Below, piece by piece: positions 23,301 through 57,337 of a stretch of 64,000 nucleotides of DNA (positions are counted from its first letter, which is position 1; each line of letters begins with the position of its first letter). The translations under genes and the position numbers were made by a program. The DNA is from Eledone cirrhosa. Taxonomy: Eukaryota. The DNA lies in contig OZ024743.1 of the NCBI GenBank assembly GCA_964016885.1, forward strand, positions 192,076,001 to 192,140,000. Direction: 5' to 3'. A model generated the notes under the pieces. The model saw only the letters and a list, made by a program, of their open reading frames with translations, ran no database searches and had not been told where the DNA came from.

Positions 23301-24057
23301 GTATATTTAAATGTAATTTCTTTTTTAAATATATATATATATCAATATGTGGTTGATGGCTGAGATAAAGAATACTTAATACCAATGTAGAGTTTAAATA
23401 TTCATTTTATTTAAGGCTAAATAGTGAGTCTTGTTACTCTCGAATTTCACCAGTTTATCACAGGGTCATCAGACAAAAACTCACACTGAATAGCAATGAC
23501 AGAACAAATAAGGGAAGACTCAGGGGGAAGGGGATTAATTGAGGAGGAGGAATTAAGACAAAGTGGACAGGATGGTAGTGGCAGTGGGGGAGGAGTAGAG
23601 CTGTGTGATGAAGATGATAATGGAAACTGGTATGAAATAATTTTAAGCTGGTCTGTGGCAGTAGAGAACAGCAGTTGGTGAATGTGAAGGTGGGTGTGTT
23701 GGGGGTAAGTGAAAAGGAGGAAAAGGTTGGTAGAATTGGCAGAATAAAATGGGGGAGGGAGTATATACAAACATACATATCTATACAAGTACACATGTAT
23801 GCACAAAGATTCATATGCATATATACATACACATACATATAAACATATATACACATAGATACATTCTGTCACTGCCCACTTTCCTGTCTTTGTAATCTTC
23901 TTTAATTTCTCATTCTGTTTTCTGATGAAGGACTAGCATCCAAAACCTTTTCCTACTATATTAAGAGTAAAACTAATAATATATTTGTTCGTTGTACCAT
24001 GTTATTTGCTTTATTATTTCTGTTTGCCTTGTGCATATATTTATATATATATATATA

Positions 24058-26163
24058 TCATCATCATCATCATTTAACGTCCATGTTCCACACTTGCATG
24101 GGTTTGGACGGGAGTTTTCCCACTTGAGGCAAGAGTGGTTGTCTTGCTCGCATAGGACTGTCTGGCAGGTTTTCTACAGTTGGATGCCCTTCCTAACACC
24201 AACCACATTTACAGTGTGGGGCTGGGAGGTTTTTACCGTGTTGCCTACACGGCCACATTACAGCGTGGACTGTCTGGCGGGTTTTCTACAGCTGGATGTC
24301 CTTCCTAACACCAACCACATTTACATTGTGGGGCTGGGAGGTTTTTACCGTGTTGCCTACACGGCCACATTACAGCGTGGACTGTGTGTTTTTTGTCGTG
24401 ACACCTACACGATCTCATTTGTTTCGGCCTGGATGTTGTGGCACCAACATAACTTTACATTGAAGAGGGCGGTGTGGATGGCGTGGGGGTGGTGGGACGG
24501 GGTGTATTTTGTTAGAGATGCCTACTGACTGTAGTAGGTTTTACTTTGTATTTAGGTAAGGCGGGTCTTCTCTATTACTGAGTACCGCCAAAGGTCTCGG
24601 TCCAGTGACATTGTCTTGGAGAGGTGTAAGTGTGTGAGGTCGGAATTTATCAGCTCGTCCCAGGTTTTTCTGGGTCTGCCTACTCCGTGGCTACCATCTA
24701 TCTTTATTGCCATGCACTTTGTTATACAGCTGTCGTCTTTCATGCGCATCACGTGACCATACCAACGTACCCTTCTCTCGAGTAAACAACATCTGATCCC
24801 TCTTATTTCTAATTTTTTCCTTAGTTCGTTTATGCTTTGCCGTTCACGTATATTACTATTACACATCCAGCGGAGCATGCAAGCTTTGTTCCTCTCTAGT
24901 CTGCGTATATCCTCTGCACACAATGCCCAGGTCTCACTGCCATGCAACATTGCTGTTCGTATGCAGGCATCATAGAACCTGCCTTTCATTTTTAGGGAGA
25001 ACCCTTTAGCGGCTAATAGTGGTTTAAGCTCTCTGAACTTTTGCCATCCAGTTCTGACTCTAGCTACTGTACTTTCAGAGCACCCTCCCCCACTGCTGAT
25101 TTTGTCACCCAGGTAACGGAAGCTGTCCACTATTTCTATAGAACCCTCTGCGCAATTGAAAGAGCTAGTATTTTTTGGGCACTTGCTGCTACTTATTGCA
25201 CCAGAGCACCGGCCACATGTAAAATCTATGTTCTTAGTTAGCTTACCTGTGATCCCACTACATCTTTTATGCACCCATACTTTGCATTTGGGACATAAAA
25301 TGGAGTTTCTACCTACGCCTTTCCTACACACTGAGCATGGCCATTTCCCGGAAGGGACCGGCGCCTTATTTTCTTTCCTACAAACTAGAACTTTAGTCTT
25401 AGCCAGGTTAATTTTAAGGCCTTTTGATTCTAGGCCATGCTTCCATGTTTGGAATTTCTTCTCTAGCTCGGTCATTGATTCAGCTATGAGCGTTAGATCA
25501 TCTGCGTATAGGAGTTCCCATGGGCAGCCGGTCTTGAACTCCTCTGTTATAGCCTGAAGGGCAATAATAAATAGTAGGGGGCTAAGAACAGAGCCCTGAT
25601 GGACACCAACTTTTACGCTAAACTCTTCACTATATTCATTGTTAATTCTAACCTTGCTGACTGTTTCTTTATACATGGCTTGTATAGCTCTCACAAGCCA
25701 TTCGTCAACACCTAGTTTTCTAAGAGCCTACGAGATAATGGAACGGGGGACTCTGTCGAAGGCTTTCTTCAAATCAACAAAAGCTAAGTATAGGGTTTAC
25801 TTTTAGCTAGGTACTTCTCCTGTAGTTGTCGTACAATGAAAAGAGCGTCTGTGGTACTTTTGCCTGACACAAACCCGAACTGCATTTCATCTAGATCAAT
25901 TCTCTCTCTGATTAGTTGCGCTATTACTTTTTCCGTGACCTTCATGACCTGGTCGATTAATTTAATGCCTCTATAGTTAAACCTATCTAGGGCATCTCTT
26001 TTACCCTTGTAACAGTTAATGATGATGCTGCTATACCAGTCCTTCGGAACAACCCCATTCTGTATGACTTGGTTTACTATCCGGGTGACCATGGTGTGTC
26101 CCACCGTTCCAGAGGCTTTCAGCATCTCAGCAACTATTTCCGAAGACCCAGCCGCCTTACCCG
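24058..26163 (-). mobile_element. RTE-clade LINE, 5'-truncated family A copy with a disrupted frame
   Basis: Near-identical protein to 3560-5221, split into ORFs 25784-26125 and 24552-25694. About 110-bp tandem duplication in the 3' UTR and a (TGA)n tail. Confidence 0.92.
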
Positions 26164-26473
26164 ATATATAAATATATCGAGTGAGTTAATCGGCCGGGCG
26201 CACCGAAAATGATAAATGGAAAAAATGAAATGAAATTTCATTTCTCACTCTTAGTACGGCTGTTACTTAAATATAAGTATGTATACGTACATACATATAT
26301 GTATACAGACATACAGTAGTATGTATATATATACATACATGCACACATATATATATGTACGTATGGATTTACCGAACATTTATTATAATGCTCGGTTTGT
26401 TTGTAAACAAACATCCCAGATTAAGCCGTAGTGTCTCGCAAACATTGTTGCCCTTTTGTTCAACACTGACAAA

Positions 26474-26528
26474 GGAACGATGTACTAGTTTCAAGCTTAT
26501 TAGCTATCGTCAGCACCGTATACCTTCC
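26474..26528 (-). ncRNA. Type I hammerhead ribozyme
   Basis: Reverse complement reads ggaa-ggtata-cggtg CTGACGA tagctaataagctt GAAA ctag TA^catcg-ttcc, with all core positions present. Confidence 0.88.
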
Positions 26529-27191
26529 TGCCAGTTGATTGAACGTCTGAAAGTATATACTTTCCTTAAGCATATTAACGGCTGAGCAGCCTAATTTGCA
26601 TATCGAGTGAGTTAATTGGCCGGGCGCACCGGAAATGATAAATGAAAAAATGAAACAAAATTTCATTTCTCACTCTTAGTACGGCTGTTACTTAAATATA
26701 AGTATGTATACGTACATACATATATGTATACAGATGTACAGTAGTATGTATATACATACATACATGCACACATATATATATATTTACGTATGGATTTAGC
26801 GAACATTTATTATAATGCTCGGTTTGTTTGTAAACAAAGGGCAACGATGGTTGCTAAACACTGTACGACTTAATCCGGGATGTTTGTTTACAAACAAACC
26901 GAGCATTATAATAAATGTTCGGTAAATACATACGTACATATATATATGTGTGCATGTATGTATATATACACATACTACAGTACGTCTGTATACATATATG
27001 TATGTACATATACATACTTATATTTAAGTAACAGTCGTACTAAGAGTGAGAAATGAAATTTCGTCTCATTTTTTCCATTTATCGTTTTCGGTGCGCCCGG
27101 CCGATTAACTCACTCGATATGCAAATTAGGCTGCTCAGCCGTTAATATGCATAAGGAAAGTATATACTTTCAGACGTTCAATCAACTGGCA

Positions 27192-27246
27192 GGAAGGTAT
27201 ACGGTGCTGACGATAGCTAATAAGCTTGAAACTAGTACATCGTTCA
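27192..27246 (+). ncRNA. Type I hammerhead ribozyme
   Basis: ggaaggtatacggtg CTGACGA tagctaataagctt GAAA ctag TA^catcgttca. One mismatch in distal stem I. Confidence 0.85.
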
Positions 27247-27420
27247 TTTGTCAGTATTGAACAAAAGGGCAACGATGGTTGCTAAACACTGTACGGCTTA
27301 ATACGGGATGTTTGTTTACAAACAAACCGAGGATTATAATAAATGTTCGGTAAATCCATACGTACATATATATACATACTACTGTATGCCTGTATACATA
27401 TATTTATGTACATATACATA

Positions 27421-27460
<40 letters not shown>

Positions 27461-52151: not shown

Positions 52152-52209
<58 letters not shown>

Positions 52210-52409
52210 TATGTACACGTACATACATATATGTATACCGACGTACAGTAGTATGTATATATATATATACATACATGCACACATATATATATGCACGTAT
52301 GGATTCACCGAACATTTATTATAATGCTCGGTGTGTTTGTAAACAAACATCCCGTATTAAGCCGTAGTGTCTAGCAACCACCGTTGCTCGTTTGTTCAAC
52401 ACTGACAAA

Positions 52410-52464
52410 GGAACGCTGTACTAGTTTCAAGCTTGTTAGCTATCGTCAGCAACGTATACCTTCC
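52410..52464 (-). ncRNA. Type I hammerhead ribozyme (first of 3 minus-strand copies; also 52832-52886 and 53254-53308)
   Basis: Exact reverse complement of the motif at 53603-53657. Confidence 0.9.
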
Positions 52465-53602
52465 TGCCAGATTGTTGAACGTATATACTTACCTTATGCA
52501 TATTAACGGCTGAGTAGCCCAATATGCATATCGAGTGGGTTAATCGGCCGGGTGCACCGAAAACGATAAACGGAAAAAATGAAACGATATTTCATTTCCC
52601 ACTCTTAGTACGGCTGTTACTTAAATATAAGTATGTACACGTACATACATATATGTATACCGACGTACAGTAGTATGTATATATATATATACATACATGC
52701 ACACATATATATATGCACGTATGGATTCACCGAACATTTATTATAATGCTCGGTGTGTTTGTAAACAAACATCCCGTATTAAGCCGTAGTGTCTAGCAAC
52801 CACCGTTGCTCGTTTGTTCAACACTGACAAAGGAACGCTGTACTAGTTTCAAGCTTGTTAGCTATCGTCAGCAACGTATACCTTCCTGCCAGATTGTTGA
52901 ACGTATATACTTACCTTATGCATATTAACGGCTGAGTAGCCCAATATGCATATCGAGTGGGTTAATCGGCCGGGTGCACCGAAAACGATAAACGGAAAAA
53001 ATGAAACGATATTTCATTTCCCACTCTTAGTACGGCTGTTACTTAAATATAAGTATGTACACGTACATACATATATGTATACCGACGTACAGTAGTATGT
53101 ATATATATATATACATACATGCACACATATATATATGCACGTATGGATTCACCGAACATTTATTATAATGCTCGGTGTGTTTGTAAACAAACATCCCGTA
53201 TTAAGCCGTAGTGTCTAGCAACCACCGTTGCTCGTTTGTTCAACACTGACAAAGGAACGCTGTACTAGTTTCAAGCTTGTTAGCTATCGTCAGCAACGTA
53301 TACCTTCCTGCCAGATTGTTGAACGTATATACTTACCTTATGCATATTAACGGCTGAGTAGCCCAATATGCATATCGAGTGGGTTAATCGGCCGGGTGCA
53401 CCGAAAACGATAAACGGAAAAAATGAAACGATATTTCATTTCCCACTCTTAGTACGGCTGTTACTTAAATATAAGTATGTACACGTACATACATATATGT
53501 ATACCGACGTACAGTAGTATGTATATATATATATACATACATGCACACATATATATATGCACGTATGGATTCACGTATGGATTCACGTTCAACAATCTGG
53601 CA

Positions 53603-53657
53603 GGAAGGTATACGTTGCTGACGATAGCTAACAAGCTTGAAACTAGTACAGCGTTCC
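53603..53657 (+). ncRNA. Type I hammerhead ribozyme (first of 9 plus-strand copies, repeating every 422 bp to about 57033)
   Basis: ggaa-ggtata-cgttg CTGACGA t-agct-aaca-agct-t GAAA c-ta-g TA^cagcg-ttcc. Intact core, stem II agct/agct, palindromic minimal stem III (ACTAGT), GUA triplet with cleavage predicted after 53648, stem I cgttg/cagcg plus ggaa/ttcc around a bulge. Confidence 0.9.
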
Positions 53658-56600
53658 TTTGTCAGTGTTGAACAAACGAGCAACGGTGGTTGCTAGACAC
53701 TACGGCTTAATACGGGATGTTTGTTTACAAACACACCGAGCATTATAATAAATGTTCGGTGAATCCATACGTGCATATATATATGTGTGTATGTATGTAT
53801 ATATATATATACATACTACTGTACGTCGGTATACATATATGTATGTACATGTACATACTTATATTTAAGTAACAGCCGTACTAAGAGTGGGAAATGAAAT
53901 ATCGTTTCATTTTTTCCGTTTATCGTTTTCGGTGCACCCGGCCGATTAACCCACTCGATATGCATATTGGGCTACTCAGCCGTTAATATGCATAAGGTAA
54001 GTATATACGTTCAACAATCTGGCAGGAAGGTATACGTTGCTGACGATAGCTAACAAGCTTGAAACTAGTACAGCGTTCCTTTGTCAGTGTTGAACAAACG
54101 AGCAACGGTGGTTGCTAGACACTACGGCTTAATACGGGATGTTTGTTTACAAACACACCGAGCATTATAATAAATGTTCGGTGAATCCATACGTGCATAT
54201 ATATATGTGTGCATGTATGTATATATATATATACATACTACTGTACGTCGGTATACATATATGTATGTACGTGTACATACTTATATTTAAGTAACAGCCG
54301 TACTAAGAGTGGGAAATGAAATATCGTTTCATTTTTTCCGTTTATCGTTTTCGGTGCACCCGGCCGATTAACCCACTCGATATGCATATTGGGCTACTCA
54401 GCCGTTAATATGCATAAGGTAAGTATATACGTTCAACAATCTGGCAGGAAGGTATACGTTGCTGACGATAGCTAACAAGCTTGAAACTAGTACAGCGTTC
54501 CTTTGTCAGTGTTGAACAAACGAGCAACGGTGGTTGCTAGACACTACGGCTTAATACGGGATGTTTGTTTACAAACACACCGAGCATTATAATAAATGTT
54601 CGGTGAATCCATACGTGCATATATATATGTGTGCATGTATGTATATATATATATACATACTACTGTACGTCGGTATACATATATGTATGTACGTGTACAT
54701 ACTTATATTTAAGTAACAGCCGTACTAAGAGTGGGAAATGAAATATCGTTTCATTTTTTCCGTTTATCGTTTTCGGTGCACCCGGCCGATTAACCCACTC
54801 GATATGCATATTGGGCTACTCAGCCGTTAATATGCATAAGGTAAGTATATACGTTCAACAATCTGGCAGGAAGGTATACGTTGCTGACGATAGCTAACAA
54901 GCTTGAAACTAGTACAGCGTTCCTTTGTCAGTGTTGAACAAACGAGCAACGGTGGTTGCTAGACACTACGGCTTAATACGGGATGTTTGTTTACAAACAC
55001 ACCGAGCATTATAATAAATGTTCGGTGAATCCATACGTGCATATATATATGTGTGCATGTATGTATATATATATATACATACTACTGTACGTCGGTATAC
55101 ATATATGTATGTACGTGTACATACTTATATTTAAGTAACAGCCGTACTAAGAGTGGGAAATGAAATATCGTTTCATTTTTTCCGTTTATCGTTTTCGGTG
55201 CACCCGGCCGATTAACCCACTCGATATGCATATTGGGCTACTCAGCCGTTAATATGCATAAGGTAAGTATATACGTTCAACAATCTGGCAGGAAGGTATA
55301 CGTTGCTGACGATAGCTAACAAGCTTGAAACTAGTACAGCGTTCCTTTGTCAGTGTTGAACAAACGAGCAACGGTGGTTGCTAGACACTACGGCTTAATA
55401 CGGGATGTTTGTTTACAAACACACCGAGCATTATAATAAATGTTCGGTGAATCCATACGTGCATATATATATGTGTGCATGTATGTATATACATATATAC
55501 ATACTACTGTACGTCGGTATACATATATGTATGTACGTGTACATACTTATATTTAAGTAACAGCCGTACTAAGAGTGGGAAATGAAATATCGTTTCATTT
55601 TTTCCGTTTATCGTTTTCGGTGCACCCGGCCGATTAACCCACTCGATATGCATATTGGGCTACTCAGCCGTTAATATGCATAAGGTAAGTATATACGTTC
55701 AACAATCTGGCAGGAAGGTATACGTTGCTGACGATAGCTAACAAGCTTGAAACTAGTACAGCGTTCCTTTGTCAGTGTTGAACAAACGAGCAACGGTGGT
55801 TGCTAGACACTACGGCTTAATACGGGATGTTTGTTTACAAACACACCGAGCATTATAATAAATGTTCGGTGAATCCATACGTGCATATATATATGTGTGC
55901 ATGTATGTATATATATATATACATACTACTGTACGTCGGTATACATATATGTATGTACGTGTACATACTTATATTTAAGTAACAGCCGTACTAAGAGTGG
56001 GAAATGAAATATCGTTTCATTTTTTCCGTTTATCGTTTTCGGTGCACCCGGCCGATTAACCCACTCGATATGCATATTGGGCTACTCAGCCGTTAATATG
56101 CATAAGGTAAGTATATACGTTCAACAATCTGGCAGGAAGGTATACGTTGCTGACGATAGCTAACAAGCTTGAAACTAGTACAGCGTTCCTTTGTCAGTGT
56201 TGAACAAACGAGCAACGGTGGTTGCTAGACACTACGGCTTAATACGGGATGTTTGTTTACAAACACACCGAGCATTATAATAAATGTTCGGTGAATCCAT
56301 ACGTGCATATATATATGTGTGCATGTATGTATATATATATATACATACTACTGTACGTCGGTATACATATATGTATGTACGTGTACATACTTATATTTAA
56401 GTAACAGCCGTACTAAGAGTGGGAAATGAAATATCGTTTCATTTTTTCCGTTTATCGTTTTCGGTGCACCCGGCCGATTAACCCACTCGATATGCATATT
56501 GGGCTACTCAGCCGTTAATATGCATAAGGTAAGTATATACGTTCAACAATCTGGCAGGAAGGTATACGTTGCTGACGATAGCTAACAAGCTTGAAACTAG

Positions 56601-57293
56601 TACAGCGTTCCTTTGTCAGTGTTGAACAAACGAGCAACGGTGGTTGCTAGACACTACGGCTTAATACGGGATGTTTGTTTACAAACACACCGAGCATTAT
56701 AATAAATGTTCGGTGAATCCATACGTGCATATATATATGTGTGCATGTATGTATATATATATATACATACTACTGTACGTCGGTATACATATATGTATGT
56801 ACGTGTACATACTTATATTTAAGTAACAGCCGTACTAAGAGTGGGAAATGAAATATCGTTTCATTTTTTCCGTTTATCGTTTTCGGTGCACCCGGCCGAT
56901 TAACCCACTCGATATGCATATTGGGCTACTCAGCCGTTAATATGCATAAGGTAAGTATATACGTTCAACAATCTGGCAGGAAGGTATACGTTGCTGACGA
57001 TAGCTAACAAGCTTGAAACTAGTACAGCGTTCCTTTGTCAGTGTTGAACAAACGAGCAACGGTGGTTGCTAGACACTACGGCTTAATACGGGATGTTTGT
57101 TTACAAACACACCGAGCATTATAATAAATGTTCGGTGAATCCATACGTGCATATATATATGTGTGCATGTATGTATATATATATATACATACTACTGTAC
57201 GTCGGTATACATATATGTATGTACGTGTACATACTTATATTTAAGTAACAGCTGTACTAAGAGTGGGAAATGAAATATCGTTTCATTTTTTCC

Positions 57294-57337
<44 letters not shown>

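Follow-up and report, generated by a model that had tools for sequence, protein, structure and literature searches.

A head-to-head insertion of a hammerhead repeat in Eledone cirrhosa: a likely retrozyme whose subfamilies probably keep a predicted RNA fold

The route by which animal retrozymes are copied, and the importance of their hammerheads, are open questions in the field. They are raised here by a locus of Eledone cirrhosa, in a window of 64,000 nucleotides (contig OZ024743.1, positions 192,076,001 to 192,140,000; coordinates below are those of the window), where hammerhead motifs on opposite strands differ in stem I from those of an array of the same unit at 52-57 kb. Is this an independent array in which a compensatory change reports selection on the RNA, and how did the unit get there? 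The answer that we give with good confidence is that 26174-27430 is an ageing head-to-head insertion of an abundant hammerhead repeat. This repeat is likely a retrozyme, with a reverse transcriptase-endonuclease of the Penelope type copying it into TA microsatellites, and the G·U and U·G states of stem I mark subfamilies whose source RNAs were probably under selection for the predicted fold.

Structure of the insertion and of a young array of the same unit

The left arm of the insertion (26174-26838, minus strand, RNA sense leftwards) holds about 1.55 units of subfamily D, and the right arm (26833-27430, plus strand) about 1.4, its TA-rich tract carrying a deletion. The arms meet 5' to 5' at 26833-26838 through an overlap of about 6 nt (microhomology), which confirms the head-to-head geometry described in the initial annotation. 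By contrast, its description of 26176-27425 as an array does not hold: the locus is one insertion with about 1.4-1.6 units per arm and one hammerhead per strand, no two hammerheads share a strand, and it is not a true ribozyme array. With one ribozyme per strand, the locus alone could not release unit-length RNA.

The left-arm type I hammerhead motif (26478-26518, minus strand, core at 26513) consists of the core CUGACGA, a U·U and 4-bp stem II with an AAUA loop, GAAA and the palindromic ACUAGU of stem III, with a predicted cut after GUA at 26483. The second motif, in the right arm, lies at 27202-27242 (plus strand, core at 27207) with a predicted cut after 27237. Both are flanked by the G·U stem I cggtg/catcg, whereas the 12 cores of the 52-57 kb array all have cgttg/cagcg (U·G), so that the reported stem I swap is real. 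For the minus copy, loop II (aaca to aata) was described as the sole further change in the hammerhead, which is correct; the plus copy also carries a C>A change at 27246 that disrupts one base pair in the distal stem I of the predicted structure. The two arms differ at 16/307 sites (5%) and each has 7-13 differences from the subfamily D majority. With the C>A change in distal stem I, these differences make the copy an older, decaying insertion.

The right arm ends (3') at 27430, monomer position ~219 (a fixed site, S1), and runs into a (TA)n target remnant at 27431-27456. The outer (3') end of the left arm, at 26174, corresponds to monomer position 313 and abuts a short AT-rich remnant. This end is atypical, positions 301-320 holding 1 of 244 arm ends, and reflects either atypical priming or a deletion. 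Truncation by a neighbouring LINE was considered and discarded, as no remaining part of the arm was found within the window. The element concerned is a 5'-truncated LINE-like reverse transcriptase element at 24060-26165 (minus strand) that adjoins the left end of the insertion, with a 391-aa frame at 24552-25727 extending to ~26170. Its (GAT)n end at ~24060 lies next to a TA run, and it therefore probably split the TA tract left of the repeat.

The comparison locus is a young insertion of subfamily F with the same head-to-head geometry and 3 + 9 cores. Its left arm (52200-53574, minus strand) carries three hammerheads and its right arm (53585-57299, plus strand) nine, in 8.8 units of 422 nt, all with the U·G stem I. 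All 10 full monomers of the two arms are identical outside the TA-rich tract, and the right arm ends near the second fixed site (~275) at (TA)n. A 12-nt duplication is seen at the head-to-head junction (53560-53588). Neither locus (26174-27430; 52200-57299) contains an open reading frame of at least 200 aa.

Hammerhead motif, subfamilies and changes in the predicted fold

The motif begins with stem I, whose 5 bp can be extended beyond a bulge; CUGACGA, a U·U with the 4-bp stem II, GAAA, ACUAGU and the GUA cut site follow in that order. All 13 positions of the consensus core, as given in the consulted part of PMC3088659, and the GUA site are present, and the type I core C3 U4 G5 A6 N7 G8 A9 / G12 A13 A14 A15 / U16 H17 is found at both 27202-27242 and 26478-26518. 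Helix III, a 6-nt palindrome, requires two copies in order to form. In all subfamilies stem II opens with U10.1·U11.1, not with a paired G10.1-C11.1. Natural hammerheads with U10.1-U11.1 exist, U·U being the most active mispair according to the same part of PMC3088659; by analogy, the mispair would lower hammerhead activity without abolishing the possibility of it. Rfam gave no hammerhead match at gathering score; a search relaxed to E = 5 returned 100 hits, none of them a hammerhead, and its sub-threshold miRNA models on the TA-rich hairpin were discarded as composition matches. Other strings resembling the hammerhead core (CTGATGA...) occur in unrelated repeats, at ~23920-23945 in the window and at ~5010 (plus strand) of locus L240.

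In folding predictions, the 422-nt monomer reached z = -8.0, and its cut ends re-form stem I. The isolated ribozyme region folded no better than its shuffles (z -0.6 to -1.7), its predicted minimum being an inactive register. The probability of the closing pair of the active stem I, for one real copy per state, was 0.60 for A-U, 0.46 for U·G, 0.10 for G·U, 0.02 for U·U and 0.00 for G·G, values that are a hint only because the folded copies carry other private changes.

The exact hammerhead core occurs 25,007 times in the 3.0 Gb genome (reversed control, 0), and matches to the repeat, a non-coding unit of ~420 nt (422 nt in the 52-57 kb array), are spread over many contigs. Dispersal by mobility, which the initial annotation had proposed, is thus borne out. 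Subfamilies were assigned by hand from a tree of 196 arms and diagnostic columns, with 148 of 205 loci retained; those dropped all overlapped, 30 as slices of four young arrays and 27 elsewhere. They form a ladder, the direction of which we infer since the tree is midpoint-rooted, from A (A-U stem I pair) through D (G·U, including 26174-27430) and E1/E2 (U·G) to F (U·G with an AACA loop, 1% divergence, including the 52-57 kb array), with B and C (G·U) as a side branch.

Exact 41-mers, counted genome-wide on one background (C7/AAUA), gave 4,370 U·G, 1,723 A-U, 975 G·U, 146 U·U and 45 G·G; the one AACA class covered, type F, gave 1,719. The 114 cores in the first 21.7 Mb of contig C1 comprised 57 U·G, 41 G·U, 11 A-U, 2 U·U and 3 others. 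Under free combination of G and U states about 800-900 of each mismatch would be expected, against the 146 U·U and 45 G·G found. Compared with neutral decay, on the other hand, the mismatches are 2.5-3 times commoner than predicted (G·G 45 vs 18, U·U 146 vs 46), which indicates that such copies are not strictly purged. They show no expansion and are located at the D/E transition. G·G and U·U copies (loci L131-L180) cluster on D and early-E backgrounds, which suggests either true intermediates or chimeras: the two bases of the pair flank the cleavage junction, so that a D unit fused to an E unit would yield G·G or U·U. The G·U/U·G swap itself is a single subfamily-diagnostic event, inherited and then amplified. 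As a marker common to thousands of copies, it did not arise independently at this locus, contrary to the earlier reading, and as one inherited event it cannot by itself show selection.

We compared, on predicted helices, the changes fixed between the seven subfamily majorities with the changes private to single copies, excluding the TA-rich tract (positions 112-225) and indels and counting each pair once. Fixed changes kept pairing in 19 cases and broke it in 3 (19/22), whereas private changes kept it in 68 and broke it in 216 (68/284; p = 6e-9). Controls relying on the structure of a single subfamily are less circular, the structure still being a prediction. With the structure from A, fixed changes kept or broke pairs 18/12 and private ones 78/249 (p = 1e-4); with that from F, applied to branches A-B-C only, the counts were 11/4 and 21/75 (p = 2e-4), and with that from C, applied to branches A-D-E-F only, 7/2 and 63/185 (p = 2e-3). 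Private changes kept ~22-25% of pairs in these controls. Double changes are found at pairs 3-389, 242-303, 55-230 and 91-108, and pair-keeping changes are in excess throughout the monomer. RNAalifold, run on 36 real low-divergence copies, predicted 64 pairs, of which five show changes on both sides; at the stem I pair 17 copies have GU, 14 UG and 5 AU, with none broken, and a second pair was AU in 27 and GC in 9.

Regarding the core alone, which had been described as invariant within more diverged flanks, the two loci differ at 1/31 core and 3/41 (7%) ribozyme positions against 26/266 (10%) and 22/267 (8%) in the remainder. This is not beyond chance, with ~2.8 core changes expected and P ~0.2 by hand calculation. 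Among the seven subfamily majorities no catalytic core position differs, and variation in the 31-nt core is confined to N7 and loop II, at 2/31 columns against 54/277 (p = 0.087). Substitution rates in the core and the rest, the comparison first proposed as a check, were 1.4% and 2.8% in raw form (p = 0.003) for 37 copies picked by overall similarity; after restriction to singletons and correction for composition, 12 core mutations were observed against 17.2 expected, and the difference was not significant (p = 0.13). The proposal that the fold is under selection is probably right in view of the fixed/private comparison, even if the evidence originally offered for it, one swap and a core/flank contrast, is insufficient. 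This comparison locates the selection in the source RNAs, not in the genomic copies. Judged from the whole fold in source elements and not from single copies, selection probably acted on these RNAs to maintain the predicted fold, and source copies likely kept it while inserted copies decay.

Insertion ends and the proposed route of copying

Complete insertions numbered 156 (7 more ran off their locus) and comprised 80 simple head-to-head pairs, 72 single arms and 4 compound cases, with no simple tail-to-tail pair; in the unbiased C1 subset, 27 of 63 insertions were head-to-head. The junction points of the pairs are scattered. The unit is present in contigs of sequencing runs coded organisms A, B and C, and in contigs of the four runs searched, positions of the minus arm are joined to positions of the plus arm in many different places; as one of these runs may come from the window's own source, this was not counted as independent. 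The recurring inverted geometry, the scattered junctions and the 16/307 differences between the two arms of 26174-27430 support the claim that it is not an assembly artefact.

The 3' ends of the arms are not scattered: 106 of 244 fall at positions 199-225 and 107 at 259-280, which places 213 of 244 at two fixed sites ~56-60 nt apart, and only 3 of 244 lie within 15 nt of the cleavage site. The 5' ends, by contrast, are scattered. TA-rich sequence makes up 135 of 239 outer 3' flanks, against 13 of 73 outer 5' flanks. The two arms end at different sites in 59 of the 80 pairs and at the same site in 2, the other 19, among them 26174-27430, having one atypical end; informative pairs therefore use different sites in 59 of 61. 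Variable 5' truncation, an inverted head-to-head copy, an optional 3' tail and an AT-rich target, the features of insertion by Penelope-like elements (PLEs), are all found, and the footprint of one fixed start site per arm (59/61) makes a definite prediction about the mechanism of Penelope elements. The cleavage junction is crossed repeatedly within arms, which together with the 10 identical monomers indicates that the template was a circle or an uncleaved multimer. Two loci, L116 and L128, contain alternating ABAB units, which a dimeric circular template or a later two-unit duplication would fit.

In the route that we propose, multimeric transcripts of source arrays would self-cleave at GUA through paired hammerheads, pairing being needed because stem III is only a 6-nt palindrome. 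Cleavage would yield unit-length RNAs, probably circularised. A PLE protein would nick both strands of a (TA)n target, and reverse transcription would start at two fixed internal RNA sites (~219 and ~275), one per strand, and pass the cleavage junction to copy from part of a unit up to nine units. The two cDNAs would finally be joined 5' to 5'.

Open reading frames beside insertions revealed two abundant PLE-like families in the genome, with putative reverse transcriptase and GIY-YIG-like motifs recognised by eye; Pfam returned no family for the two C-terminal fragments of these frames. The young family has a 1,217-aa frame with an asparagine-rich insert and is arranged in 4.1-kb tandems and minus/plus pairs (L231 2083-5736; also L230, L232-L234, L242 and L243). 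All 145 of its scored hits are 100% identical over the 263 aa queried. Its spacer holds a minimal hammerhead-like motif (~L231 1880-1915), and no 3' end was reached within 175 nt of this motif. The second family has a 713-aa frame (L235 2131-4272), with copies 96-98% identical and 83,299 first-look candidates. No sequence similarity was found between the repeat unit and the two families (14 loci). The young family is a candidate partner.

Other origins can be weighed against these data. It is very improbable that a satellite was dispersed through slippage or recombination of DNA, or that the inversions are assembly artefacts: the ABAB higher-order periodicity of some arrays (L116, L128) would suit a satellite, but fixed 3' ends with variable 5' ends, the strict asymmetry of one site per arm, dispersal over many contigs and the 5% divergence between the arms of 26174-27430 do not, and as an origin of the insertions this account is largely refuted. 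A subtler objection concerns the covariation, which might reflect shared ancestry only, with drifting source elements, a transition bias and a structure predicted from the same sequences. The stem I swap is indeed a single event, G·U wobble makes many transitions seem pair-keeping, and U·U and G·G copies exceed the neutral expectation and sit at the D/E transition. Private mutations, however, which share the same spectrum and structure, keep pairs in only 22-25% of cases, and the excess remains when the branches tested do not include the subfamily that supplied the structure (11/4 and 7/2); we consider this objection improbable.

We also regard as unlikely, though somewhat less so, that the repeat is mobilised by PLEs from uncleaved linear multimers, with selection acting on a fold recognised by the reverse transcriptase, a weak or vestigial hammerhead and no circles. 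In the Anolis PLE, according to the consulted part of PMC11167929, hammerhead mutants did not affect insertion in vitro and unprocessed RNA was the main substrate. In keeping with this, arms do not end at the cleavage site, the pair-keeping excess extends over the whole monomer, the U·U opens stem II and the core constraint alone is not significant. Against it stand the lack of any catalytic core difference in seven subfamily majorities (0, vs 54/277 other columns), the pairing of stem I kept through three states, and insertions with 12 ribozyme copies and identical units in both arms, which fit one circular template; moreover, related repeats of mussel, coral and axolotl give circles, as stated in the part of PMC7229834 used here.

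The preferred retrozyme reading can be extended, tentatively and with rather less than even confidence, to a genome-encoded ribozyme circle that would evolve as a viroid-like lineage, structurally selected in its own right, with inserted copies decaying while seven successive subfamilies keep the whole RNA fold. Each head-to-head insertion would then record a PLE dimer priming one circle from two fixed sites, one on each DNA strand, and the swap from G·U to U·G would have been favoured by weakening a competing inactive register of stem I, for which the predicted closing-pair probabilities of 0.10 (G·U) and 0.46 (U·G) may be cited. The natural variants of the repeat family form a ranked series, each with its copy number; if the viroid-like extension were true, they would provide a natural allelic series for how ribozyme folding sets the success of a retroelement.

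Relation to known systems

By sequence definition, the repeat is likely a further member of the animal non-LTR retrozymes: it is a non-coding, low-GC tandem repeat whose unit falls within 150-450 nt and carries a type I hammerhead, and its many copies are dispersed. One feature of the class is absent from 26176-27425, with its one hammerhead per strand, and present in the 52-57 kb array. Animal non-LTR retrozymes, as described in the parts of PMC7229834 and 10.64898/2026.07.22.740005 consulted, likewise consist of AT-rich non-coding tandem units of 150-450 nt with one type I hammerhead each, occur as thousands of dispersed monomers to multimers, have a highly self-paired monomer and co-occur with PLEs. 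For the present repeat no pLTR homologue was found in the two PLE families examined, and it differs in its U10.1·U11.1 at the base of stem II. Of nine Xenopus retrozyme dimers, eight did not cleave in vitro (10.64898/2026.07.22.740005), a point against the reading preferred here. Head-to-head geometry, two fixed ends and TA targeting were measured here; the words "inverted" and "microsatellite" are absent from the main text of PMC7229834. Literature on retrozymes or hammerheads in octopus and cephalopods gave no description of this family, which supplementary species lists could include, and nothing relevant on compensatory change or subfamily selection in retrozymes appeared among the matches listed.

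EN+ Penelope-like elements, with their pLTR "tail" (sections consulted of PMC8557442 and PMC3846280), resemble the repeat in their inverted, 5'-truncated head-to-head copy, optional tail and AT-rich or (TA)n targets, and the PLE of PMC11167929 also starts reverse transcription internally at two sites. In vitro, the purified protein of that work cleaves AT-rich DNA and extends each of the two strands, with starts at two internal sites of the RNA. Unlike these elements, the repeat has no open reading frame, its end sites lie ~56-60 nt rather than 30-40 nt apart, and its arms consist wholly of repeat units. With dimer-dependent type I hammerheads (PMC4209133, in part) it shares the core consensus and a short palindromic helix III; its helix II of 4 bp is that of canonical motifs, as opposed to 7-8 bp in the minimal motifs of PLEs, and lacks G10.1-C11.1. 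The retrozyme class, covarying hammerhead families and inverted PLE insertions are already published; the additions made here are lineage-level evidence for structural selection and the two-site insertion footprint.
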